A stretch of 64,000 nucleotides of DNA from an uncultured Candidatus Saccharibacteria bacterium (GCA_964510945.1 CAZEED010000001.1:98774-162773); one strand, 5' to 3'. Counted from the first letter of the stretch, positions 6,726 through 61,737 are shown. Numbers and translations are program-made. The notes: generated from the letters alone by a model not told the origin.

Positions 6726-7694
6726 ATGAATTCCAGAAAGAAATCATTTGAGATATTCATTGTTTTCTGTTTATTGTTGGTTGGATTAGGATTTGTCTTT
6801 CGACAGGATTTGATGGATTGGTACACGCTCAGGACCTATGACCCTCCGGCATCTATTGAAAAAATAACAAAAACCAATAAATTCACCGAGTCAGGAAAAA
6901 GATATTTTTATGTAGCTCGTCCCGCGATCGTTAGAGGGGCACAATTTAATCAAAAGTGTCGGGATGGTTTGCCGACAGAGTTTTCTATAGTCCTGGGGTG
7001 TTATATCAATACTGACGGTATCTATCTTTTTAGAGTCACGGATAAGCGATTAAATGGAATTGTAGAAGTAACAGCAGCACATGAAATGTTGCATTCGGCA
7101 TACGACCGATTAAACAGTGATCAAAAAAACGAAGTAGATAAAATGTTGCAAGAAGCTTACCAGGGAATAAAAGACGTTAGGATTAAACGAACGATCGAGC
7201 AATACAAGCAACAAGATCCCTCGAGTGTCCCGAACGAACTACATTCTATACTCGGAACAGAAGTCGCAAATTTGCCCGAAGATCTCGAAAATTATTATAA
7301 GCAATATTTTAAAGATAGGACCACTATTACAGATCTGTCGTCTAGCTATGAATCAGAATTTAGCTCAAGACAGAATAAGGCCGACCAAATTGGCTTGCAG
7401 CTTTCGGGCCTTAAGTCTGAAATTGATTCCGCCCAGCAGTCAGCTAATCAAAAGCGCGCCCAACTCTTAGGTGATAAAAGTTCGTTAGATGATTTATTGG
7501 CGAGCGGAAAAACAGACGAGTATAATTCGCGTGTCGATTCATTCAATAACGAAGTCGCTGTTTACAACGCACTCGTTAAGCAAATTCAAACAAAAATAAA
7601 GTCGTATAACTTGCTGGTAGCCGAGTACCAAGACGTTTCTGTAGAGATAAATGATTTATATCAATCTATAGACAGCCGTCCAAAGTCCCTGTAA
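6726..7694 (+). CDS. Hypothetical membrane-anchored protein with HExxH motif and coiled-coil C-terminus
   Basis: N-terminal hydrophobic helix (IFIVFCLLLVGLGFVF), AAHEMLHSAY, Q/S/L-rich C-terminal third; family not recognised. Confidence 0.5.
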   Translation: MNSRKKSFEIFIVFCLLLVGLGFVFRQDLMDWYTLRTYDPPASIEKITKTNKFTESGKRYFYVARPAIVRGAQFNQKCRDGLPTEFSIVLGCYINTDGIYLFRVTDKRLNGIVEVTAAHEMLHSAYDRLNSDQKNEVDKMLQEAYQGIKDVRIKRTIEQYKQQDPSSVPNELHSILGTEVANLPEDLENYYKQYFKDRTTITDLSSSYESEFSSRQNKADQIGLQLSGLKSEIDSAQQSANQKRAQLLGDKSSLDDLLASGKTDEYNSRVDSFNNEVAVYNALVKQIQTKIKSYNLLVAEYQDVSVEINDLYQSIDSRPKSL

Positions 7695-15082: not shown

Positions 15083-15898
15083 ATGTATTCAGGCTCGACA
15101 CTTACACCATTTTCAGGACGAATTTTAGGTGCGCACCAAAAACTCGATAGGGTTGCTAGAAATAATTTAGACAAAATAACTCAGAATAAGGATGATTTTC
15201 CGGCATCGAAAAAAATCCTTCATTTTGAAGGTAAGAAAGGGCCTGATGCCATAAAGCGAAAAAGTCCTTCCAAAGATGAACCTTGGCATTATTATAGTCC
15301 GTTTGACGATAAAGACTCTCAACTTTTAGATTTAATCGACGACCATTACAAAAAGCTGGTTAACGAGCTAAAGTCTAATAACCAAGAGCGAATAGCTTTT
15401 GAAGCCGCTTGGCTTGCTCATGCAATAACTGACGGTTTAACGCCAGCTCATCACTATCCATACGAGGAAAAGGTTGAAGAATTATGGGAAGGTAGCAAAG
15501 ATCAACGAACGACTCTTAGTAAGAAATGGTTTCCGCCTGCAGATACAAAGCGTGGACGAATTAAAAAAACATGGAAGTATCTTGGCCCAAAGGGTTTAAT
15601 GAGTACTCATGGGTTATTTGAATTTGGGATTGCCACAATTATCGCACCCTTATCAATGAAAGAATCTGTTCCAACTCAAGAAGATATTGTTAACGCACGA
15701 AAAATTGGCCATATTGAAACATTCAAGCATTCGGCAAGAGAAATTGCCGTTCTTGATATGTACGAAAGATTTATGAAAAAAGGTTGGTCGCCAAAGTTGG
15801 TTGTCAATGTTCGAAATAAGTTAGGCCCGACTATTGCAAAAACTATCACACTTATTTGGTTTTTAGCCGTTAGTGAAGCAAAAAATGATAAAGCATAA
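15083..15898 (+). CDS. Hypothetical protein (His-rich, possibly zinc phospholipase C/P1-nuclease-like fold)
   Basis: 271-aa ORF; AAWLAHAITDGLTPAHH segment; assignment tentative. Confidence 0.45.
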   Translation: MYSGSTLTPFSGRILGAHQKLDRVARNNLDKITQNKDDFPASKKILHFEGKKGPDAIKRKSPSKDEPWHYYSPFDDKDSQLLDLIDDHYKKLVNELKSNNQERIAFEAAWLAHAITDGLTPAHHYPYEEKVEELWEGSKDQRTTLSKKWFPPADTKRGRIKKTWKYLGPKGLMSTHGLFEFGIATIIAPLSMKESVPTQEDIVNARKIGHIETFKHSAREIAVLDMYERFMKKGWSPKLVVNVRNKLGPTIAKTITLIWFLAVSEAKNDKA

Positions 15899-18691: not shown

Positions 18692-18711
18692 ATCTGTTAA
18701 TATAGCAAACC

Positions 18712-19992
18712 ATGCAAGTAAAAAGACAAAATATCACTGATACAAAATTAACACTGACGGTTTCGGCTGATCCTAAAGATCTTGAGACAATTAAACAGAT
18801 TACACTCGAAAGACTTCGATCATCCGTAAAGCTACCAGGTTTTCGTGAAGGAAAAGTTCCTATCAATCTAGTCGAGAAAAACGTTGATCAGCAGACTTTA
18901 CAGACAGAGTTTATGGATGAAGCGCTAAATCAGTTGTATCCGCAGGCTGCGAAAAACGAAAAAATTCGACCTGTCGATAGACCCAAGATATCTATTAAAA
19001 AGTTCGTACCGTATGCAGACTTAGAATTCGAAGCAGAAGTTGAGATATTAGGACCAATAAAGCTCGCTAATTACAAAACCATAAAAAAACCTCTAAATAA
19101 AGTGTCTGTAACGGATAAAGAAGTTGACGATGTGTTGGATAATTTAGCTATAAGACAATCTAATAAAACTGAAGTTAAACGATTAGCAAAAAATTCTGAT
19201 GAAGTTTGGATTGATTTTAGTGGAGTCGACTCAAAAAACCAGCCCATTCCTGGTGCAGACGGTAAAGACTATCCTTTAGTACTTGGCAGTAAAACGTTTA
19301 TTCCTGGTTTTGAAGAAAAGTTAGTTGGTAAAAAAGCCAAAGATGAAGTCACATTTACACTGACATTTCCTAAAGACTATGGTGCAAAAAAACTTGCCGG
19401 TCAAAAAGTCACATTTACAGTGACCGTTAAAAAAGTCGAAGAAGTTACAAAACCCAAGATTGACGATGATTTTGCAAAAAACGCCGGACCATTCAAAAAC
19501 CTCGCAGGGCTAAAATCTGACATTAAAGCCCAGCTGTTGGCTGAAAAGCAAAAACAGGTGTTGCAGCAACAAGAATCAGATATTATTCGTGAAGTTACTG
19601 AAAAATCGACTGTTTCTATACCAGATTCACTTGTTACTGATCAAGTTGAACGACTGCTTCAAGATTTTAAACAAGATCTTACTTATCGTGGTTTAACCTA
19701 TCCAGAGTTTTTAAAACAAGAAGGTTTTACTAAAGAATCGTATAAAGAAGAAGTATTACTCCCTGAAGCGAAGAGTAGAGTTAAAGCTGGACTAGTATTG
19801 GCAGAAATAGCTGAAAAAGAAAGTATAAGTGTGTCGTCTGATGAGGTTGACGCAAGGATCCAGACTTTAAAAGCTCAATATACTGATCCAAAAATGCACG
19901 AAGAACTAGATAAAGAAGATTCAAAACGAGATATTTCGTCTAGGTTAATGACTGAAAAAACTATCAACCAATTAGTTAGCTATTCAAAATAA
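18712..19992 (+). CDS. tig: Trigger factor
   Basis: 426 aa; ribosome-binding signature GFREGKVP, central FKBP-like region, C-terminal arm domain; tig-clpP linkage. Confidence 0.92.
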   Translation: MQVKRQNITDTKLTLTVSADPKDLETIKQITLERLRSSVKLPGFREGKVPINLVEKNVDQQTLQTEFMDEALNQLYPQAAKNEKIRPVDRPKISIKKFVPYADLEFEAEVEILGPIKLANYKTIKKPLNKVSVTDKEVDDVLDNLAIRQSNKTEVKRLAKNSDEVWIDFSGVDSKNQPIPGADGKDYPLVLGSKTFIPGFEEKLVGKKAKDEVTFTLTFPKDYGAKKLAGQKVTFTVTVKKVEEVTKPKIDDDFAKNAGPFKNLAGLKSDIKAQLLAEKQKQVLQQQESDIIREVTEKSTVSIPDSLVTDQVERLLQDFKQDLTYRGLTYPEFLKQEGFTKESYKEEVLLPEAKSRVKAGLVLAEIAEKESISVSSDEVDARIQTLKAQYTDPKMHEELDKEDSKRDISSRLMTEKTINQLVSYSK

Positions 19993-19995
19993 ATA

Positions 19996-20024
19996 TTGAC
20001 AAAACCACCCTTAACTTATACAAT
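19996..20024 (+). promoter_or_regulatory. Consensus promoter TTGACA-17 nt-TACAAT placed for a leaderless transcript
   Basis: TTGACA 19996-20001, 17-nt spacer, TACAAT 20019-20024, then 6 nt to ATG 20031. Confidence 0.6.
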
Positions 20025-20030
20025 AGTGTG

Positions 20031-20408
20031 ATGTCAAGGAAACCCGAATTAAACTTTGAAGACGTTCGTTCAAATGAAGATTTAGTGAATCTAGGTGTTG
20101 AGCTAGAAAGAAGATACCCTGAGCTTGAACTTGGAATTCTAACAGTCATGTCAAGATACATTGATACACAAAGAGGACCGAATGATGTTGATAACGCAGT
20201 TAACGGATTAAAAAGTTTGGTTATGAGCGGCATCGATCATAGCGACATGACTGAACAAGTAGTACAACCTCATGGTAGCGCACTTACCTCAACTACGTAC
20301 AGAAGGCTCGAAAGACGAGGAATCCTACCTGCTTTTCGGGTTGACGTATCGAAGTCGTCAGCACCAGATCATGGGGTCATTGGAAAGATCTTAACACGTA
20401 AAAACTAG
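20031..20408 (+). CDS. Hypothetical protein (orphan between tig and clpP)
   Basis: 125-aa ORF, no recognisable motif, own promoter, no Shine-Dalgarno. Confidence 0.45.
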
Positions 20409-20431
20409 CACTCTTGACACGAGAGTGCCAA
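20405..20431 (+). promoter_or_regulatory. CIRCE-like operator upstream of clpP
   Basis: CTAGCACTC-N9-GAGTGCCAA (16/18 to consensus); spacer again begins TTGACA (20414-20419). Confidence 0.65.
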
Positions 20432-20470
20432 TTAATGTATTCTATTTGTACAATAAAAGGAGAGAAAATA

Positions 20471-21070
20471 ATGTCCACGAAAGCATCATCAGTATTAATC
20501 CCGACAGTTATTGAATCAGATGGTAGAGTTGAACGGGCTTATGATATATATTCGCGTTTACTCAAAGATCGAATTATATTTTTAGGCACAGACGTTAACG
20601 AGCACACTGCTAATTTAATTGTTGCTCAATTGCTGTTTCTTGAGTCTGAAGACCCAAAGAAAGATATTAAGCTATATATCAATAGTCCAGGTGGTAGTGT
20701 TTATGACGCTCTGGCAATTTATGACACTATGCAGTTTGTAAAAAACGACATAGAGACGGTTGGAATCGGTATCCAAGCTAGTGCAGCGGCATTTTTATTA
20801 AGCTCTGGAACTAAAGGTAAGCGGTTTTTGCTAAAAAACGCCACGGCAATGATCCATCAGCCTTCAGCAGGTACTCGTGGCAAGGTTACTGATATGGAGA
20901 TTGACCTTAAAGAAGGTATAAGAATTAAGCATAAATTAAACGAAATTATGGCCAAAAATACCGGTAAACCTATCAAGCAAGTCGAAAAAGACATGGACCG
21001 AGATTATTGGATGACATCTGATGAAGCAGTAAAATACGGCCTAGCCGACAAAGTCATCACCAACCGCTAA
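20471..21070 (+). CDS. clpP: ATP-dependent Clp protease proteolytic subunit ClpP
   Basis: ORF 20414-21070; start moved to ATG 20471 behind AAAGGAGAG. Catalytic Ser context [37 protein letters not shown]. Confidence 0.93.
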
Positions 21071-21082
21071 AATACCCACTTT

Positions 21083-21682
21083 ATGAGTACATTGCAAAAT
21101 CGATCTGAAAAATATTTAGTATCAGTTGCCGAAGCGACTCAATGGATTGTTGAAATGGGTTTACCGGAAGAACATATACCCCAATACAATTCTTTAAATA
21201 GATTGTATTGGGGTGGACATTTTGGTCAGGCAGTAATAGTTCTCGCTAACCAAGAGCCAGTAAATCGCAGTATGGATCTAGGTCTAATCTATGCCGCAGT
21301 AAGTGCTCGTAACTCTTGCAGCTATTTGGGGACACCAATTAAATCTCGACAAGATCAATTCGCTAAATCGTATAGTAAATTCGGTAAAGCATGGGCAGCT
21401 GCAGATAATAGGTTCCAGAAGGGATTAGAGCCCAGTATGATGGGTGCGTTAGCATTTGTGTTCGCTCCATCAAAGAGCGAATTAAGTTCTCCAATACCTG
21501 GTGGTGTACTTATCGCGGCACATCCCTCAAATTCTGAATATTTGCCGGATTTCTGCGGATTGTATGGGTGGGATACTAATAGATATGCGCCTTTTGAGGA
21601 TGAAGATCATAAAGTCGGCGCAGCAGAAGACCATTACCCTAATAGACTCGGATTCCTATTACCTGAAGTTCAGCCAAACTAG
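21083..21682 (+). CDS. Hypothetical protein (cargo between clpP and the clpP 3' relic)
   Basis: 199-aa ORF; Trp/Gly-rich, no recognised family. Confidence 0.45.
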   Translation: MSTLQNRSEKYLVSVAEATQWIVEMGLPEEHIPQYNSLNRLYWGGHFGQAVIVLANQEPVNRSMDLGLIYAAVSARNSCSYLGTPIKSRQDQFAKSYSKFGKAWAAADNRFQKGLEPSMMGALAFVFAPSKSELSSPIPGGVLIAAHPSNSEYLPDFCGLYGWDTNRYAPFEDEDHKVGAAEDHYPNRLGFLLPEVQPN

Positions 21683-21702
21683 TCTTGGATCAATAAATCT
21701 AT

Positions 21703-21786
21703 GAAGACACGGATAGGGATTACTGGATGACTTCGGACGAAGCAGTAAAATACGGTCTAGCCGACAAAGTCATCACAAACCGTTAG
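21703..21786 (+). pseudogene. Relic second copy of the clpP 3' end (last 27 codons plus stop)
   Basis: Aligns with 20988-21070 (13 mismatches in 83 nt by my count). Encodes [27 protein letters not shown] versus [27 protein letters not shown]. An in-frame TAA lies immediately upstream and there is no start. Confidence 0.8.
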
Positions 21787-21824
21787 TACTTGCTAATTTT
21801 GAATATCGAGAATACAGTTTTAAT

Positions 21825-22457
21825 ATGGCGAAACTAGAACAGATAACTGCACATCGAGCTACTACACAATTAATGCCAGTGCGTCGGTTCGTCGAAAGAC
21901 ATAGATTTGATTTATCAAGAAATGCACCAGCTACACTTGATCGTTTCGGATCATTTTTCTCAACCGTTGTTAATGTGGGTAGATACGCAATCGATCCGTC
22001 AATCTTACAGTTTTTAGTCAGAGAAGATAAAACAAACCGCATGATGGGATTTGCAACTATAATTCCTAACATTGTTGTTGAGCCGCCGGTAGGAGCAGCT
22101 GTTACAGGAAATTATCTTGATTACGTTCTCTCTGACTCGGTATCAGAGTCAATTCACGAGTCTGTTTCTAAGGCTTTACTTAGACGGAACGAAAAGTATG
22201 AACTAAAATATCATGGCATATCAGAGTCTAGATTTGTCGGAGAAGAAACGTATGCTCAAGTGAATACTATTGCAGTTAATCGGTTCCCTGAAAGAGATAG
22301 GTATGACATACCCAACAGGGGTTTAATCCGAATGATTCCACCCCTAACGGGGGTAGTTTCGCTTGAATCACCACAAGTTACTGGTCTTGAAACGCAAGGA
22401 TTCGTTCCTTCAGATCAGGTTGTGTTTCACTATATGTCAAACCGAGCAGTCAGTTAG
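21825..22457 (+). CDS. Hypothetical protein
   Basis: 210-aa ORF; no recognised motif. Confidence 0.45.
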   Translation: MAKLEQITAHRATTQLMPVRRFVERHRFDLSRNAPATLDRFGSFFSTVVNVGRYAIDPSILQFLVREDKTNRMMGFATIIPNIVVEPPVGAAVTGNYLDYVLSDSVSESIHESVSKALLRRNEKYELKYHGISESRFVGEETYAQVNTIAVNRFPERDRYDIPNRGLIRMIPPLTGVVSLESPQVTGLETQGFVPSDQVVFHYMSNRAVS

Positions 22458-22631
22458 TTTAGCATTTCCTACTACAATAAGCGCTTGACATAATTAAATT
22501 GTTATATAAACTATGATTCAAGAAGTAGGGTAAGCGGGCCTTGCTATGATTTATCAAAAAATTGTGTGAGCTACCCCTTAGAGATCTTCGTTCAAAATCA
22601 ATCTAACAGATTCAAGGAGAACTTGCTCTAT

Positions 22632-25600
22632 ATGGCAAAGTCGCTAACGCTCACGTCTGGTAAACGGCAATATTTCACAAAAACAGAAAACATCTTAGAT
22701 CTACCAAATTTAGTTGACCACCAAAACAAATCTTTTCAATGGTTCATCGAAGAAGGCCTCGGCGAATTACTAGCAGAAGTTAGTCCAATCGAAGACTACA
22801 CAGGCACAAAATTATCACTAAGCTTCAAAGACTATCGATTCGAAAAGCCAAAACTAACAGAACAAGAAGCTCGCGAGAATAACGTAAGTTTTGACGCGCC
22901 TCTTAAAGCGACAGTTGTTCTTACTAATAAAGTTACCGGTGAAGTTAAAAAACAAGAGATTTATCTTGGCGATTATCCATGTATGACCTCACGGGGAACT
23001 TTTGTGATTAATGGCGCAGAACGTGTTGTAGTAAGCCAGCTTATTAGATCAGCTGGCGTTTTCTTTACTAGCGAACAAAGCGCAGGGAAGAATTTGTACG
23101 GAGCCAAGGTTATTCCCGGACGAGGTGCGTGGCTAGAATTTGAGACATCCGCCAAAGGCGCAATGTTTGTAAAAATTGATCGAAAACGAAAAATTCCTGT
23201 TACTACACTGCTTAGAGCATTAGGTGTTTCTGATGCCAAGATGAAAGAAGAATTTGCTCATGTTGATCAAGGTAGTGAAAGTTACATTGACATGACTCTT
23301 GATAAAGATCCGGCTCGAGGCACAAATGAAGCCTTAATTGAAGTCTACAGACGTCTTCGACCAGGGGATCTTGCTACAGTTGATAACGCTCGTAGCTTGC
23401 TTGAAAACATGTTCTATAACTTTAAACGTTTTGATTTTAGTCGTGTCGGAAGATACAAAATCAACAAACGCTTAGATATCGATCTACCAAATACTATCGA
23501 AAACCGAGTGATGAGATTAGAAGACCTCATCGCAATTATTGCTGAAATTATTCGACTTAATAATACACAAGAACCGGCTGATGACATTGACTCGCTTGCA
23601 AATAGGCGAGTCAAATTAGTTGGAGAGCTTGTTCAGCGTCAGTTCCGTATCGGATTACTTCGAATGGAGAGAAACACTAAAGACCGAATGTCGATGAGTG
23701 AGATTGAGACAGTTACACCAGGTCAACTGATTAACGCACGTCCAGTTGTTGCTGCGGTTAGAGAATTCTTCGCTAGTTCGCAGTTATCTCAGTTTATGGA
23801 TCAGATTAACCCGTTGTCAGAGCTTGCACACAAAAGACGATTGAGCTCAATGGGCCCGGGTGGATTATCAAGAGAGCGAGCCGGCTTTGAGGTTAGAGAT
23901 GCGCACGCTACACACTATGGCCGTATTTGCGCGGTTGAAACACCTGAAGGTGCCAATATTGGTTTAGTGTTAAACATGGCAACTTATGCTCGAATTAATG
24001 ATTACGGATTTATTGAAACGCCTTATCGAAAAGTAACTAACGCTGTAACAGCCAAAAAAGCTGCCGGACACATTGCCGCAGTAAACCTAGAAAATGAAAA
24101 AGGCGCAGTAATCGTTAAAGCAGGTGAAAAAATCTCAGATGCTCAGGCTAAAAAACTCGAAGCCGTTAAAAAACAAGTTACTTGGCCGATAAAAGCCAAA
24201 GCAACCGATGAAATAATATATTTAGATGCCTTCGAAGAAGGAAAAGCCGTTATTGCCAGTGCTGGAGAAACAATTGATGACGACGGTTATTTCGTTAATG
24301 ATCGTGTTTCTGCTCGAATCCGACTAAAAACTGGTGAGATCGACGCTAACGAAGTTACTCATATGGATGCTTCTAGACGTCAGATCATTGGATCAAGTGC
24401 GGGATTGATTCCATTCATTGAGAAAAACTATGTTTATAGGAGTTTGATGGGAAGCAACCAGCAACGTCAAGCAGTACCGCTAATTAATCCACAATCTCCA
24501 ATTGTTGGAACTGGTCTAGAATCGACTGTAGCTGAAAATACTGGACAACTAATTGTTGCCGAGGAAAATGGAGAAATCATCAAAGCCGAAGCTGATGAAG
24601 TTGTAATTAAATACAATAAATTAGGTAAGAGAAGCTACTATCCACAACATTTTGTACGAAGTAACGAAGGAAGTTGTATTAATCAAAAGGTCGTGGTAAA
24701 TACTGGCGATAAAGTTAAAGCCGGTACACCGCTTATTGAGGGAATGTCTATTCAAGGTGGAGAGTTAGCGTTAGGAAAAGACCTAATCGTGGCATTTATG
24801 CCATGGAAAGGCTATAACTTTGAAGACGCTGTAATTATCTCTAGAAAACTTGTTGAAGATGATACTTTGACATCAATTCATATCGTCGACTTTATGACTG
24901 AAGTTAGAGAGACAAAACTTGGACCAGAAATCGTTACAAGAGATATTCCGAACGTCTCAGAAGAAGCATTAAGGCACCTTGATGATGACGGAATAGTGCG
25001 GATTGGTGCAGAAGTACATCCTGGGGATATTTTAGTAGGAAAGATTACACCAAAGGGTGAGCAAGAGCTGTCAAGCGAAGAACGACTTCTTCGAGCAATC
25101 TTTGGTGAAAAAGCTAAAGATGTTAGAGATACATCACAGCGCATGAGTAACGGTAAACACGGAAAAGTTGTTGGAGTCAAAGTATTCTCTAGAGAAAATG
25201 GTCATGAACTAAAAGCCGGTGTCATCATGCAGATTCAAGTCTTTGTGGCACAAATGCGCAAGATCGCTGTAGGTGATAAATTAGGTGGTCGACACGGTAA
25301 CAAGGGTGTAATCGCCCGAATACTTCCAGTTGAAGATATGCCATTTATGGAAGACGGAACGCCTGTAGACATCATCCTAAACCCTCTAGGTGTGCCGAGT
25401 CGTATGAACATTGGACAATTATTTGAGACTCACTTAGGTATGGCTGCGCACGCTTTAGGCTTTAAAGTTGCTACTCCACCATTTAATGGCGTGCCTCTAG
25501 AAAAGATCCGTAGCCTCCTTAAAGAAGCGGGACTTCCTGAAACAGGCAAACAACAGTTATATGATGGAAGAACTGGCGATAGATTTACAGAATTAACTAC

Positions 25601-31092: not shown

Positions 31093-33180
31093 ATGGCGGA
31101 CAAAAAATCAGATCTAAAAAATTATAGAAATATCGGTATTATAGCGCATATTGATGCTGGTAAAACTACAACAACAGAGGGTATTCTTTACCGTACTGGC
31201 TTAAAGCACAAAATTGGTGCAGTTCACGAAGGTGAAACGACCACCGACTGGATGGAACAAGAACGCGAACGCGGTATCACCATCACATCTGCCGCGGTTA
31301 CCTGTTTCTGGAAAGATCACAAGATCAACATCATAGACACACCTGGGCACATTGACTTCACCGCCGAAGTTGAACGTAGCCTAAGAGTACTAGATGGTGC
31401 TGTAACAGTATTTGACGGCAAAATGGGTGTCGAGAGTCAATCAGAGACAGTATGGCGTCAAGCGAACAAATATAATGTCCCTCGGATCTGTTTTATTAAC
31501 AAAATTAACCAAACAGGTGGCGATTTCTACAAATCACTTGATACTATTCACGCAAGGTTAACAAAACGTGCTTTTCCGATACATCTACCATTAGGTTTCG
31601 AACAGTCGATTAATGGAATCATTGATCTGATTAGTATGAAAGCATACACCTATAAAGAGTTTACTGATCACGAATTAGTCGAATCAGACATCCCAGAGAA
31701 TATGGCAGATCAGGTAAAGAAGTACCGAAGTCTATTGGTCGAAAACGCAGTAGCCGAAGATGAAAAAATCCTAGAAAAATTCTTCGAAGTTGGAGAAGAT
31801 GGATTATCAGAGGATGAAATAAGGCAAGCCGTCCGAACAGCAACACTTACCAGTGATTTCTTCCCTGTAACGGGTGGTGATGGTCGCGGGGTGATTGTAG
31901 AGAAAGTCCTTGATGCAGTTAATGACTTTTTACCAAGCCCACTAGATCGTGGCTCTGTCTGGGGCACACATCCTAAGAGTGGCGATGAGATTGAAAGAAA
32001 ACCTTCAGAGTCTGAGCCAATGTCAGCTTTAGCGTTTAAAATTGCAACTGATCCTTTTGTAGGTAAATTATGCTTTGTAAGAGTATATTCAGGTAAGTTG
32101 CAGGCAGGATCATATGTCTATAACAGCTCTACAGGCGAAAAAGAACGTGTTGGACGCGTTGTACGTATGCAAGCCGATAAACGAGAAGACATTACAGAGA
32201 TTAGCGCTGGTGACATAGCTGCGATAGTAGGCCTAAAAGGTACTACGACTGGTAATACCCTATGTGACGTAAATAACACAGTTGTACTCGAGAATATTAC
32301 TTTCCCTGATCCACCGGTATCGATTGCCATTGAGCCAAAAACTAAAGCCGATCAAGAAAAGATGGGTATTGCTTTGCAAAGACTAGCCGAAGAAGATCCA
32401 ACCTTCCAAGTAAAGGTTGATCACGAGACAGGGCAAACAATTATTAAAGGGATGGGTGAATTGCACCTCGAAATCATTGTCGATCGAATGAAAAGAGAAT
32501 TTGCTGTTGAGGCTAACATTGGTCAACCGCAAGTTGCTTATCGCGAGACAATCCGAAAAGATGGTGTTGAAGTACAAGGCAAATTTATCCGACAATCAGG
32601 TGGACGAGGTCAATATGGTGACGTTTGGCTGCGACTTTCGCAAAATGAACAAGGTAAGGGCTTTGAATTCATCAACAAAATTAAGGGTGGTGTGATTCCT
32701 GCAGAATATATTAAGCCAGTTGAAGAGGGAATCAAAGAAGCCATGAGCAATGGAGTACTCGCTGGATATCCAGTCGTAGACATCGTTGCCGAACTTTATG
32801 ATGGTAGCTATCATGACGTGGACTCTAGTGAAATGGCCTTTAAAGTTGCAGGATCTATGGCATTACAAGCGGGTGTTAAACAAGCTGCGCCAGTATTACT
32901 AGAGCCAGTGATGAAAGTAGTAGTTGTTACACCTGAAGAGTTTATGGGTGAAGTTATTGGTGACCTTAATAGTAAACGTGGTCGTATCGAGTCTATGGAA
33001 GATCTAACAGCCGGTATTAAAGAAATTACAGCCTTTGTACCACTCGGAGAAATGTTTGGCTACACTACTAATCTACGTAGCAATACACAAGGTCGCGCTA
33101 GCTCAAGCATGGAGCTGGATCACTACGCTGATGTTCCAAGCCACGTAGCCGAAGCAATCATCGCCAAAAACAGTAAATAA
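31093..33180 (+). CDS. fusA: Elongation factor G
   Basis: 695 aa; [24 protein letters not shown](Q). Confidence 0.97.
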
Positions 33181-33241: not shown

Positions 33242-34048
33242 CTATTTATTTATATTCGTTCCGTCTCCGAATAATTTACCAGAATTAAAATCAGCGCGCA
33301 TCCCCGTATAATCGCCAGTAGGTAACTGTATACTCCTAACCCTTATTGCAGCAATATCTATAGGATCTCCCATGACCGCTACATACATTCTCGCTTTTAC
33401 TTGTCTATTGACTGGGGTGCCATAGTCATCAGTGTCATATATGTACTCGTTAAAGCCGTAGCAACCTATTCTACGTGCAGTCTTATTACTTTCTTGTCGA
33501 TGGTCATAACTACTATTACTAGTTGTATACCATGATCTTGTTCCTTCTCTGTATAAACGAATGCTAACATGCGTATTCCAACTTTTTGCTTTCCAGCAAA
33601 GCTGTACTGCCATCGGACGATTACGAGTGTTTTCGGGCTTTGGAATGATAAAAGACTTTGATATATAGGTCATTCTTGGCGTATATAGACTAGTTCTAGA
33701 TCTCCAACCATTTATTTTACGCCCTTTAGAATTAGTGGATACTTTGATCTTGTGGCCAACAGACCTCCAATTTACTTGCGGAATACTAGTATCATACTGA
33801 TCTTCATTATTATTTTCTGCTGCTGCGTCGTCGTAGTTGAGTACTTTAATAGGTTTTTTCTCTACTATATCCCCAGCCGGATATGTTTTGCTGTAACCCT
33901 TCGATTGCGCGTCTGAATTTCTGATGTTGAATAAATCATTTTTGTATGCGAATACCCCTAAAGCTAACACTAAACCAATCAATAGCGACATAACTAATAT
34001 TGGTTGAAATCTACGATTTGTAGTTTTAGTTTTATTATTTGACTTCAT
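33242..34048 (-). CDS. Membrane-anchored two-Cys extracytoplasmic protein, paralog 1 (unrecognised family)
   Basis: 268 aa; basic N-tail plus TM (ILVMSLLIGLVLALGVFAY). Shares DLFNIRNSDAQSK.YSKTYPAG, RPMAVQLCWKA, GCYGF, IAAIRV with the two downstream paralogs. Confidence 0.6.
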   Translation of the reverse strand: MKSNNKTKTTNRRFQPILVMSLLIGLVLALGVFAYKNDLFNIRNSDAQSKGYSKTYPAGDIVEKKPIKVLNYDDAAAENNNEDQYDTSIPQVNWRSVGHKIKVSTNSKGRKINGWRSRTSLYTPRMTYISKSFIIPKPENTRNRPMAVQLCWKAKSWNTHVSIRLYREGTRSWYTTSNSSYDHRQESNKTARRIGCYGFNEYIYDTDDYGTPVNRQVKARMYVAVMGDPIDIAAIRVRSIQLPTGDYTGMRADFNSGKLFGDGTNINK

Positions 34049-34080
34049 ATGTTTAGTCTCATTTCAATTATTTAATATAA

Positions 34081-34881
34081 TTATCTTGTGATGTCCGTTT
34101 CGAATTGTCTCAGGTAATATCCATTACTGTCGTGTTCTTGTGGTTTTGTTGGTTCAAAGATTTTAATAGATGCCAGTTCAATGCCACCTTCAGGTACTTT
34201 AATGAAGAGTTTTGCTTTTATGGATTTTTTTATTCTTACCGCGTATTGTCCTCGATGTATTGGCTCACTCTGCGGATGTGATCTAGGTACGACAGATTTA
34301 TAGCCAACATCATAAAAACCCCAGCAAGCAATTTCGCGATACCGATTAGGATCGCTTTCATATCGATGGGTGAAATTTATATGATATGCTCCATCCTTGG
34401 TCCCCCACACTTTATTGATATCTCTACTCAAACGTAGTTTTATGGTTGTATTCTTTTCTAGAGCTCGCCAGCAAACATACACAGCCATTGGACGTTTTGA
34501 TGTAGGAATGGTAAACCATTTACTGAAGTAGACCCATCCTTCGTTATCTAGAGTGTGTTTTTCATCGGCGTGATTCATCCTCCAACCATCAATCATAGGG
34601 CCACCTGGTTTAGCGGGCATACGAATATTCCCGCCTTGAGATTTAACCGATACTAACTTACCTCTGTAATACTTGAATGGTGTGGGTTTGTAATTAACTA
34701 TTTTTCCCGCAGCATAGGTTTTATTATATCGTTTAGAATCCGCCGACGAATCTTTTAGATTCAGCAAATCCATACTAAAAATAACAAGTCCAATTACGAA
34801 TATTAATATAATTGAAAAAGTTATAATTTTTGATTTATTTGATAATTTAAGATCCTTATTTTTCTTTTTTTTGTTTGCCAT
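34081..34881 (-). CDS. Membrane-anchored two-Cys extracytoplasmic protein, paralog 2
   Basis: 266 aa; MANKKKKNKDLKLS tail, TM, NIRMPAKPGGPMIDGWR, RPMAVYVCWRA, IACWGFYD, LASIKIF; SD AAGGA before the ATG. Confidence 0.65.
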   Translation of the reverse strand: MANKKKKNKDLKLSNKSKIITFSIILIFVIGLVIFSMDLLNLKDSSADSKRYNKTYAAGKIVNYKPTPFKYYRGKLVSVKSQGGNIRMPAKPGGPMIDGWRMNHADEKHTLDNEGWVYFSKWFTIPTSKRPMAVYVCWRALEKNTTIKLRLSRDINKVWGTKDGAYHINFTHRYESDPNRYREIACWGFYDVGYKSVVPRSHPQSEPIHRGQYAVRIKKSIKAKLFIKVPEGGIELASIKIFEPTKPQEHDSNGYYLRQFETDITR

Positions 34882-34912
34882 ATTTGTCCTTAGCTACATT
34901 TATTAGTTATCT

Positions 34913-35869
34913 TTAATTGGTGATGTCAGATTCAAACTGTCTATCGTAATAATTTGCACCGAGTTTAGATCTTTCAGGCGGTTGTGTTGGGTGAAAAACT
35001 TTTATTGAAGCAATTTCTACTTGGCCACGAACCTTTATATTAATTCTAGCCTTAATGGATTTGGATTTATTCATTTTTTTCATGTATTGCCCTGGATATA
35101 TTGGCTCGTTTTGCGGATGTGATCTAGGCACGACACGTTCATAGGCGATATCGTAAAAACCCCAACATTTTATTTTTTGCCACTCATCGTCACCATGTTC
35201 ATAACGATGTATATAGTTCATTATAGGCGCGCCATTTTTGTCTGACCATAATTCTCGTCTATTCTTGTTACTGAGCGTAGGACCTGCGAATAGAAGTTTT
35301 AATGATGTTTCTTTGCCGGACAATGATCTCCAGCAGACATATAAAGCTAGCGGTTTATCACTCTTGTCTTTTGGGATATTTATTTCTTTTGAAAAATAAG
35401 ACCAGTCAGGTAAATATGTAGTAAGTCTAGGGTTTACAGCTTTTTTATTGGGTTTTAACTTTTTAAAAAGTTTATCGTAGGTTGATGAGTTAACTAATGG
35501 CGATCGCCATCCCTTAATCATAGGACCTCCTGGTTTGGCAGGCATTCTTATGTTCTTTCCTAAAGATTTCATCATTACAAAATCATCGTCGCCGTATATT
35601 CCGCTATCTTTACGAACTTTTGTTTTGCCGTAGTTAACGATTTCGCCGGCTGGGTAAGTTCTATTGTAATTCTTAGAATCTGCAGATGAGTCTCTTAGAT
35701 TCAGCAAATCCATACTATAAATTAATAATGCAAGTACAATTACTAATAAAATTGAAAAAGTTATAATTTTTGTTTTATTTGATAATTTAAGATTCTTATT
35801 TTTCTTTTTTTGTTTGGCATTTTCTCTCCTATACTTAAGCATTATACATAACACACTAATTGATTCCAA
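34913..35869 (-). CDS. Membrane-anchored two-Cys extracytoplasmic protein, paralog 3 (conserved ATG at 35820 is out of frame because of an A7 tract)
   Basis: ORF open to 35869. The homolog of the paralog-2 start (ATG 35820 behind AGGAGAG) is in the +1 frame. Motifs NIRMPAKPGGPMIKGWR, KPLALYVCWRS, IKCWGFYD, IASIKVF. Confidence 0.55.
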   Translation of the reverse strand: MESISVLCIMLKYRRENAKQKKKNKNLKLSNKTKIITFSILLVIVLALLIYSMDLLNLRDSSADSKNYNRTYPAGEIVNYGKTKVRKDSGIYGDDDFVMMKSLGKNIRMPAKPGGPMIKGWRSPLVNSSTYDKLFKKLKPNKKAVNPRLTTYLPDWSYFSKEINIPKDKSDKPLALYVCWRSLSGKETSLKLLFAGPTLSNKNRRELWSDKNGAPIMNYIHRYEHGDDEWQKIKCWGFYDIAYERVVPRSHPQNEPIYPGQYMKKMNKSKSIKARINIKVRGQVEIASIKVFHPTQPPERSKLGANYYDRQFESDITN

Positions 35870-36034: not shown

Positions 36035-37216
36035 ATGGCAGATTTTGATCGAAGTAAACCACACGTAAACGTTGGAACAATGGGGCACGTTGACCATGGT
36101 AAAACAACACTAACAGCAGCAATTACAGCTGTACTAGCTAAAAAGCTTCCTAGCGACGTTAACAAACCAGTTAAATACGACGAAATTGACAAAGCACCAG
36201 AAGAAAAAGCACGTGGTATAACAATTGCGACATCTCACCAAGAATACGAGAGTAAAAAACGACACTACGCACACGTTGATATGCCAGGTCACGCTGACTA
36301 CGTCAAGAACATGATTACAGGTGCCGCACAGATTGACGGAGCGATTCTAGTAGTATCAGCTGCAGATGGCCCTATGCCTCAAACACGAGAACACGTACTA
36401 CTCGCAAAACAGGTCGGCGTTCCATCGATACTTGTATTCATGAACAAGATGGACCTTGCAGATCCAGAACTAGTTGAACTAGTAGAAATGGACATTCGTG
36501 AACTACTCGGCAAATACGAATTCGACGAGAACGCTCCAATTATTAAAGGTTCTGCAACTAAAGCTCTTGAAGGTAGTGCCGCAGATGAAGATGCCGTTAT
36601 GGAACTTGTCGACAAGATGGACGAATATGTTCCAGAACCAAAACGAGACCTTGATAAAGACTTCTTGATGGCTATTGAAGACGTTTTCTCAATTAAAGGA
36701 CGCGGAACTGTAGCAACCGGTCGTATTGAACAAGGAGTTGTTAAGGTAAACGAAGAAGTTGAAATTGTCGGTATCCATGATACAAAAAAGACTGTTGTTA
36801 CAGGTGTAGAGATGTTTAAAAAGAATCTAGATCAAGGTCAGGCTGGAGATAACGTCGGAATCTTACTTCGAGGTATCGAACGTGATGATATCGAACGTGG
36901 TCAAGTTTTGGCTAAACCCGGTTCAATTACGCCTCACACAGAATTTGACGCAGAAGTATACGTGCTAACAAAAGAAGAGGGTGGACGACACACCCCATTC
37001 TTTAAAGGTTACAAACCTCAATTCTACTTCCGAACAACGGACGTTACAGGTGAGGTAGAACTACCGGCTGATAAAGAAATGGTCATGCCTGGTGATACAG
37101 TAACTTTCAAGGTTAAATTGATCCAACCGATTGCTATGGATCAAGGTCAACGATTCGCCATCCGTGAAGGTGGACGAACAGTTGGCGCCGGTGTTGTAAC
37201 AAAAATTACAAAATAA
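36035..37216 (+). CDS. tuf: Elongation factor Tu
   Basis: 393 aa; [25 protein letters not shown]. Confidence 0.98.
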
Positions 37217-61437: not shown

Positions 61438-61612
61438 CCCCTGTTCTGATAAAATTTACAGGTACTTTTCGCTGTTTTAACCTAGCTTTTCAACCTAACG
61501 ATTCGATTTATTCGGCTCGAGCGATTGAAAGGCTAAGAAAAAGAAGCGACTAGAGATTGAAGGCAAATATTCGTAGAATGTTAGCGGAAAGTCGACCGTC
61601 GGTTCTGACGAG

Positions 61613-61689
61613 CCGCCTTAGCTCAGTTGGTTAGAGCGACGGTTTTGTAAACCGTAGGTCGTCGGTTCGAATCCGACAGGCGGCTCCAA
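61613..61689 (+). tRNA. tRNA-Thr (anticodon TGT), CCA encoded
   Basis: GCCGCCT/AGGCGGC acceptor, anticodon loop TTTGTAA, T-loop TTCGAAT. Confidence 0.92.
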
Positions 61690-61724
61690 AAGAGACGTAT
61701 GCAACTTTATGTTACAGGCGGCTC

Positions 61725-61737
61725 CACAGAAAACTTC
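61725..61737 (+). repeat. Direct repeat of the tRNA-Thr 3' end (ACAGGCGGCTCCA), copy 2
   Basis: Identical 13-mer to 61677-61689. Confidence 0.85.

Follow-up and report, generated by a model that had tools for sequence, protein, structure and literature searches.

The 3′ end of the clpP gene in a Saccharibacteria (TM7) chromosome is followed by a decayed second copy of itself, and the two copies enclose a single open reading frame (ORF), ORF199, which is almost devoid of homologues. The source genome was examined over a stretch of 64 kb (hereafter, the window; coordinates refer to it and features lie on the plus strand unless stated otherwise). Comparison with closely related strains delineates at this position a 716-bp cassette, which consists of a replacement clpP end, ORF199 and part of the decayed clpP tail, and which is a real insertion, gained or lost recently. 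We consider it probable, although far from certain, that such cassettes are exchanged by homologous recombination at a hotspot beside a conserved gene and that they originated by homology-facilitated illegitimate recombination (HFIR).

Two copies of the clpP 3′ end and the unit between them

The clpP gene (20471..21070) is intact and encodes a 199-aa protein matching the Pfam family CLP_protease with E = 1e-77; its closest match among 185,579 GTDB species representatives reaches 82% at the protein level, and the top hits are all from Saccharibacteria. The functional end of this gene (20979..21070) forms the first copy of a direct repeat. The second copy (21695..21786), a relic corresponding to ClpP residues 171-199 and a TAG stop, is untranslatable, with an in-frame TAA upstream (21691-21693) and no start codon, as had been noted in the original prediction made from this sequence. 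A repeat search aligned 20979-21069 with 21695-21785 over 91 nt, ungapped, with 84% identity and a spacing of 716; as read from the alignments, the tail homology is perhaps ~9 nt longer upstream, to about 21686, if a 1-nt gap is allowed. The similarity withstands alignment statistics: blastn yields E = 4e-22 for the 82-nt core alignment of the clpP tail with the relic, and the 17-mer GAAGCAGTAAAATACGG (21023-21039), which together with a 20-nt block (21041-21060) represents the longest identity in the repeat, occurs twice in the window, once in each repeat copy, with 0.01 occurrences expected by chance.

The original prediction recognized the repeat but placed the second copy at 21703 rather than 21704 and counted 13 mismatches, 11 of them synonymous. 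In the correct register, 20988-21070 and 21704-21786 differ at 12 of the 83 nt, including the stop codon (TAA versus TAG), and the comparison of 27 codons reveals 10 synonymous and two non-synonymous differences (K to E and M to T), so that, as predicted, 25 of the 27 residues are identical and a stop follows. The proportions of synonymous and non-synonymous differences (pS 0.61 versus pN 0.03) depart strongly from equal rates (Fisher p ~3e-7). ORF199 (21083..21682) is the sole ORF between the copies, also in line with the prediction.

Local tandem duplication or misassembly of the clpP end, with subsequent drift, would make ORF199 a spurious ORF in junk DNA, in keeping with the near lack of homologues and of a predictable fold for this protein. 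This explanation is effectively refuted: the tail and the relic differ almost only synonymously; the ratio of non-synonymous to synonymous divergence (dN/dS) of ORF199 is 0.18-0.4 over three lineages, indicating a real gene under purifying selection; a homologue with 29% identity occupies the same genomic position elsewhere; and the filled structure agrees in five independent assemblies, which excludes an artefact of assembly. We also considered functions for the relic itself. A functional RNA was rejected because the relic folds no better than shuffled sequences (z = -0.27), and a micropeptide was rejected because the candidate ATG with its Shine-Dalgarno-like context is not conserved in either of the two other lineages carrying the cassette (L003 and L095, see below). 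A 26-nt repeat in L003 (D3) and other short repeats are out of the cassette register and were judged to be due to chance.

Strains with an empty site were recovered from public assemblies by exact match to the ClpP protein of the window (L084-L090) and through homologues of ORF210, the gene downstream of the relic (L094 and L096). In all of these, clpP is followed by 38 nt and then by ORF210, with no ORF199, that is, an uninterrupted clpP continues directly into the sequence found in the window from 21787 onwards, the arrangement envisaged in the original prediction. The insertion at the clpP 3′ end thus stands, and ORF210, listed in the original prediction among the orphan ORFs of the locus, is resident in all close relatives and lies outside the inserted DNA. 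The most informative comparison is with L086 (SRR26978888). Over 18700-23480, where the two share ~4.1 kb, one single-nucleotide change (20444) and the 716-bp indel are all that distinguishes L086 from the window. Set against the clpP tail of the window, its single clpP end has changes only at 21040, 21061, 21067 and in the stop codon, and all of its mismatches to the relic fall within 21710-21738. The empty allele of L086 is window clpP up to the 17-nt core (copy 1, 21023..21039, the interval in which the window and L086 switch register; copy 2, 21739..21755) and window relic after it. It is thus exactly what a single crossover between the repeat copies would produce, or start from.

Accordingly, the inserted unit (21040..21755, equivalently 21023-21738, an indel in sequence that is otherwise identical in L086) comprises the last ~31 nt of clpP, ORF199 and the 5′ half of the relic, whereas the 3′ half of the relic is the former clpP end of the host. 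Read from its 5′ side, the unit begins with the replacement clpP end, which a 12-nt spacer separates from ORF199; after a further short spacer come the decayed 5′ half of a clpP tail and, last, the core. In comparison with L086, the cassette-borne part of the present clpP is 21040-21070, including the TAA stop. The spacer 3′ of the ORF199 stop measures 12 nt up to the start of the ungapped repeat at 21695, or 6 nt if the tail homology begins at ~21689 with a 1-nt gap. Outside the 18700-23480 tract, L086 and the window are 4-5% diverged; that they are identical only inside this 4.8-kb tract indicates that the gain or loss of the cassette postdates a very recent recombinational exchange. Cassette gain or loss is fast relative to point mutation.

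The relic has a mosaic structure: of its 5′ 52 nt, only 33-35 agree with any of eight clpP alleles, whereas of its 3′ 48 nt, 40-48 match the same alleles (p = 0.008). Since decay should be even along a pseudogene that is all of one age, this unevenness points to two parts with different histories. The 5′ half (21695..21738) is older and more decayed, travels with the cassette, and has a junction common to the window, L003 and L095. The 3′ part (21756..21786) equals the clpP end of the empty allele L086 and is the original end of the host. This fits a scenario in which the 3′ part is renewed with each transfer, being the recipient's own former end. The relic is therefore an old clpP end from 21739 onwards but not in its 5′ part; the proposal of the original prediction that the relic derives from a different functional clpP allele is borne out by codon choices that match L084 and L094. 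Specifically, the window stretch GGATAGGGATTACTGGATGACTTCGGAC has the codons of the functional clpP alleles of L094 and L084, which accounts for the synonymous excess, and the counterpart of its 5′ stretch in L003 and L095 is degenerate (YLE, or a stop codon).

The longest stretch without any variation among the eight clpP alleles (14 nt) lies in the core, which makes it a natural place for crossovers between diverged alleles. As a separate observation, the 17-nt core, GAAGCAGTAAAATAYGG, encodes the conserved ClpP motif EAVKYG and is found as an exact match in the clpP genes of many unrelated bacteria (metagenome loci L104-L223), whose ClpP proteins are 32-62% identical to that of the window; conservation at the nucleotide level thus reaches well past the clade. 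As a metagenome probe, this pattern is too unspecific: the scan with the 17-nt core returned chance matches or unrelated clpP genes, none of them accompanied by ORF199, ORF210 or ORF234 (a second cargo gene described below).

ORF199 and its movement between clpP backgrounds

ORF199 begins 12 nt past the clpP stop and is not preceded by a Shine-Dalgarno sequence. No hits were obtained against Pfam, PHROGs or PADLOC, and a search of 5.8 billion proteins yielded one orthologue with 94% identity. An exhaustive HMMER search added one further real homologue, P0011 (29% identity, E = 2e-4); another candidate, P0010, was rejected as a spurious match to a repeat protein. AlphaFold2 (AF2) models, from the single sequence and from a three-sequence alignment, have a predicted local distance difference test (pLDDT) score of 34-36 and are unusable. 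There are no relatives of ORF199, ORF234 or ORF210 in IMG/VR, and a phage origin of the cargo was rejected on these grounds.

Filled, that is, ORF199-bearing, loci were found in assemblies from three SRA runs (L001, L002, L091 and L093), a Japanese run (L003; DRR404984) and a JGI metagenome (L095; JGI 3300046786). Apart from that of the window, the clpP-ORF199-relic-ORF210 order is present in two further lineages, represented by L003 (~92% nucleotide identity to the window) and L095. The clpP genes of the three filled lineages are 9-14% diverged, and the synonymous divergence (dS) of ORF199 is 3-9 times below that of the adjacent clpP: 0.065 versus 0.59 between the window and L003 (Fisher p 1e-11), and 0.29 versus 1.04 between the window and L095 (Fisher p 1e-7). 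This disparity shows that the cassette has moved horizontally between different clpP backgrounds. The window, L003 and L095 share one right junction, TCTTGRATCAATAAATCTATGAA, at the point where the 3′ flank of ORF199 meets the tail fragment, and in each of them it lacks 1 nt that is present in clpP, implying that the structure arose once.

A single origin would also be expected if the insertion were ancient and inherited only vertically, with the empty strains representing independent precise deletions between the repeats. Direct repeats do promote deletion, and the crossover that separates the window from L086 falls in one of the two longest blocks of identity. Nevertheless, we regard purely vertical inheritance as unlikely, because the dS of ORF199 is below that of clpP in every pair, which is unexpected under co-inheritance, because the flanks are mosaic with clear recombination tracts, and because the filled strains are not monophyletic by their clpP alleles.

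ORF199 is probably expressed by read-through from clpP. There is also a weak promoter-like site at 21045-21073 (CCGACA, 17 nt, TAAAAT; 9 of 12 matches), the -10 hexamer of which overlaps the cassette-specific TAA stop of clpP and lies 9 nt before the ORF199 ATG, so that this site might give ORF199 a near-leaderless transcript. Sites of this kind are not more numerous in the region than in shuffled sequences. The end of the relic, with TAG followed by TACTTGC, lacks the promoter-like site seen at the functional clpP end.

A second cassette and a proposed mechanism of exchange

In L003, a further 764 nt, holding ORF234, are present between the relic and ORF210. This second insertion is flanked by 32-nt repeats of the clpP tail (L003 10681-10712 and 11445-11476), and the locus accordingly holds a third copy of the clpP end. 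The ORF234 product shows a weak, sub-threshold GNAT motif. The gene lacks a Shine-Dalgarno sequence and is preceded (L003 10712-10740) by an extended -10 element, TGGTATAAT, at a distance of 7 nt from the ATG; the homologue of ORF234 in another locus, L100, has TGTGGTATAAT equally far from its start. This arrangement in L003 and L100 suggests leaderless expression of gap genes.

Outside the lineage of the window, homologues of both cargo genes occur next to clpP without any repeat. In L100, ORF233 (71% identity to ORF234) is preceded by a clpP with a different end and followed by the promoter region of rpoB, and the spacer upstream of it is homologous to the ORF234 spacer in L003. The sequence downstream of ORF233, TTGACAAACAAT, shares GACAAA with the clpP tail exactly at the point of the right joint in L003. 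In L103, the order is clpP-ORF193-rpoB, with no relic, and ORF193 corresponds to P0011, the 29% homologue of ORF199. More distant ORF234-like genes (27-35% identity) are also found directly after clpP in L031, L037 and L050. Both cargo families are thus native to the clpP-rpoB gap elsewhere, as donors should be if the event was homologous on one side only. By contrast, no duplication of the clpP tail was detected outside the lineage of the window, either in the 80 GTDB representatives of Saccharibacteria described below or in ~10 closer relatives, using tblastn with ClpP and self-blastn of the tails, and tail duplication as a general feature of Saccharibacteria was accordingly rejected.

The recombination junctions occupy different points in the tail, with no fixed crossover point. 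Whereas the window and L086 switch within 21023-21039, L089 changes from the window type to the L084 type between 21040 and 21046, and the joint of ORF234 coincides with GACAAA, ~24 nt short of the stop. The flanking repeats are also of different lengths, ~91-100 nt for ORF199 versus 32 nt for ORF234, and the region is visibly mosaic, with tracts of identity along the window when it is compared with its relatives.

We propose that a donor fragment, consisting of a clpP end and a neighbouring gene, would enter the cell by natural transformation, pair homologously on the clpP side and be joined illegitimately at its far end, through microhomology inside the recipient clpP tail, as in HFIR. Since the cassette brings its own clpP end, clpP stays intact, and the displaced end of the host is left downstream as a relic. 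Thereafter, the two tail copies could act as portable homology arms, with RecA-type crossovers between a tail copy and any clpP allele either inserting the cassette in new strains or deleting it precisely. The core, where clpP is most conserved, would be the favoured location of such crossovers. Natural transformation and integration of linear DNA by homologous recombination have been shown experimentally in Saccharibacteria (PMC10633639), and HFIR with 3-10 nt of microhomology has been documented in other transformable bacteria (PMC6382021). Of the two scenarios in the original prediction, recombination with foreign DNA fits these data better than integration of the kind seen in tRNA-targeting islands, for which the architecture is right but an integrase is missing.

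Several points weigh against this proposal. We infer transformation, RecA dependence, the HFIR origin and any direction of the difference between the window and L086 only indirectly, from allele comparison, and the sequence is compatible with gain as well as with loss. The 17-20 nt of identity available at the crossover are at or under the usual minimum for an efficient RecA crossover. The 18-nt segment 21711-21728 differs between the window and L003 beyond what neutral drift since the split of their ORF199 genes would produce, and attributing this excess to serial crossovers is ad hoc. The microhomology argument based on GACAAA uses a 71%-identical proxy, L100, in place of the true donor, and the nearest donor-type homologue of ORF199 is only 29% identical. 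Finally, a trans-acting recombinase might be encoded outside the 64-kb window.

The last point leads to site-specific integration, with a tyrosine or serine recombinase acting in trans, perhaps from a larger element that was lost or has decayed, and with the clpP 3′ end as attB; in that case, the two cargo genes, ORF199 and ORF234, would represent remnants or satellites. In its architecture, the locus does resemble an integrated element: direct repeats of the target 3′ end border the cargo as attL and attR would, one copy restores the gene, and the empty site equals an attL/attR recombinant. Furthermore, two tandem insertions share the same target, the cassettes are alike in size (716 and 764 nt), and 64 kb is all of the genome that was examined. 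However, neither the insert nor the 20 other window ORFs that were scanned yielded a tyrosine or serine recombinase, integrase or transposase, so that no recombinase accompanies the putative att site, and the repeat search found no inverted repeats at the insert borders, that is, no fixed short core flanked by inverted binding sites. The variable junctions and the unequal repeat lengths, the occurrence of both cargo families as ordinary gap residents elsewhere in the absence of any repeat, and the confinement of tail duplications, among the loci compared, to this lineage all argue in the same direction. Taken together, these observations make site-specific integration, including the assignment of both cargo genes to it, improbable. 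Insertion sequences (IS), miniature inverted-repeat transposable elements (MITE) and other transposons match no better, with no terminal inverted repeats found and with flanking repeats that are 32-100 nt long, diverged, direct and derived from coding sequence.

The closest parallel to the structure is provided by e14 and phage 21, which integrate in the 3′ end of icd in Escherichia coli, where a substitute end keeps the gene working and the icdC pseudogene stays downstream (PMC13626634). As in e14/icd, the clpP insert brings the 3′ end of a housekeeping gene, the displaced end persists as a downstream fragment, the two ends differ mainly synonymously, and loss of the insert yields a chimeric functional gene (PMC13626634). 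By contrast, e14, a prophage of 15 kb, encodes its own integrase and undergoes site-specific excision upon SOS induction, whereas the clpP insert is 716 bp long, contains one ORF but no recombinase, and has junctions at varying positions.

In its population behaviour, the locus resembles the minimal mobile elements of Neisseria, in which whole-gene cassettes vary between two conserved flanking genes (PMC3082526), as they do between clpP and rpoB in the 80 Saccharibacteria, and, as in the clpP cassette, no dedicated mobility genes are found. Such elements are by definition taken up through transformation and homologous recombination, for which the mosaic tracts of identity and the published transformability of Saccharibacteria (PMC10633639) offer indirect evidence at clpP. 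However, the cargo of a classical minimal mobile element is replaced through crossovers in both flanks, with no duplication left behind, whereas at clpP the cargo is added, each cassette has a private end of the left flank, and tail relics are stacked. The proposed combination of a one-sided anchor with a microhomology joint of 3-10 nt is that of HFIR in Acinetobacter, Streptococcus pneumoniae and Pseudomonas stutzeri (PMC6382021), and the donor-type arrangements in L103 and L100, albeit distant proxies, fit this process, as the 6-nt GACAAA may do; HFIR is known mainly from laboratory selections, whereas here it is inferred from natural alleles. By analogy only, the cassettes also recall those of integrons, being ~0.7 kb in size, with a single ORF, apparently no leader or ribosome-binding site, a terminal recombination sequence, and directional stacking downstream of a fixed expressed site. 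Unlike in integrons, no IntI was found and there is no imperfect palindrome or hairpin of the attC type, the repeat being the tail of a coding gene.

A literature search retrieved nothing specific that would constitute a prior description of such a structure in Saccharibacteria. The genomes of the Candidate Phyla Radiation (CPR, Patescibacteria) are tiny and rich in orphan genes but contain few recognizable mobile elements, and little is understood of how genes are acquired in this group. The clpP locus offers a natural example, with filled, empty and doubly filled alleles as well as plausible donor arrangements, of single genes being added beside an essential gene without damage to it, apparently through homologous recombination and one illegitimate joint. 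Tentatively, and with considerable doubt, one could go further and regard the locus as a recombinase-free cassette system, in which a gene becomes mobile by virtue of a packaged copy of the 3′ end of a neighbour that is universally conserved and highly expressed, in this case clpP. If so, the portable tail would combine three roles, providing an arm for homologous pairing, a new end for the gene and a hook for expression; RecA alone would suffice to insert cassettes, to stack them with the newest closest to clpP, as in integrons, and to remove them precisely; and the decaying tail relics would record a series of past hosts. Such a system would extend to Saccharibacteria and perhaps to other naturally competent bacteria with reduced genomes. 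The clpP tail might also serve as a landing site for engineering in transformable Saccharibacteria.

Variable gaps around clpP and other features of the window

To place the locus in a phylum-wide context, we surveyed 80 Saccharibacteria loci from GTDB species representatives (L004-L083). The hisS-(orf151)-tig-clpP-rpoB synteny is nearly universal among them. The absence of clpX after clpP and of rplKAJL before rpoB, which the original prediction correctly observed, is thus the norm of the lineage and separate from the insertion. In these 80 loci, clpP is separated from rpoB by a gap of 166-5265 nt, in which ~90 unrelated ORF clusters are found, and from tig by one of 5-3104 nt. The clpP-rpoB interval is thus a hypervariable cargo site of Saccharibacteria, located between two highly conserved genes. 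Within the clade of the window, this gap varies by the presence or absence of ORF199, that of ORF234, and the allele of ORF210. The two gaps are phylum-wide hotspots that concentrate strain-specific orphan genes, and these genes may matter for interaction with the host or for defence.

In this clade, the gene that resides between clpP and rpoB is ORF210 (21825..22457). The 38-nt spacer that separates it from the clpP end (21787..21824) is conserved in the empty-site strains and probably holds the ORF210 promoter (TTGCTA ... TACAGT). Among strains with identical or 99% identical ClpP, the ORF210 proteins share 61-94% aa identity. For instance, the window and L084 (4639-5271) have ORF210 proteins that are 61% identical (dS saturated at 2.3, non-synonymous divergence (dN) 0.28), with ClpP and the RpoB N-terminus 100% identical; further alleles show 82-83%, 94% and 35% identity. 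ORF210 seems to be either a very fast-evolving gene or one that has been replaced repeatedly.

The tig-clpP gap of the window contains ORF126 (20031..20408), a strain-variable orphan outside the cassette. In close relatives, it is replaced by a 143-aa ORF (L087 2278-2709; 25% identity, E = 0.08) or a 194-aa ORF (L096 3695-4279), and its dN/dS between the window and L003 is ~0.56. The repeat search revealed no relic of the tig tail in the window.

The remainder of the window is a housekeeping stretch in which pepN, nusA, clpB/C, radA, a penicillin-binding protein (PBP) gene, recG, hisS, tig, clpP, rpoB/C, fusA, ribosomal-protein operons and secY, among others, were identified. Two ORFs in the housekeeping region, of 322 aa (6726-7694) and 271 aa (15083-15898), do not belong to any Pfam family, and the latter is also conserved in L003. 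Three paralogous ORFs of 268, 266 and 318 aa, likewise with no Pfam hit, are encoded on the minus strand at 33242-35869, between fusA (31093-33180) and a probable tuf gene (36035-37216). The three paralogues have common internal repeats of 201 nt and 106 nt with ~80% identity, and the block looks like another orphan insertion that splits normally adjacent core genes. Finally, the last 13 nt of a tRNA-Thr(TGT) gene (61612-61688), ACAGGCGGCTCCA (61676-61688), are repeated 38 nt downstream (61714-61726), as part of a 34-nt repeat with 74% identity, which may represent a minor att-like scar left at the tRNA 3′ end by an element that has since been excised, or may be due to chance.

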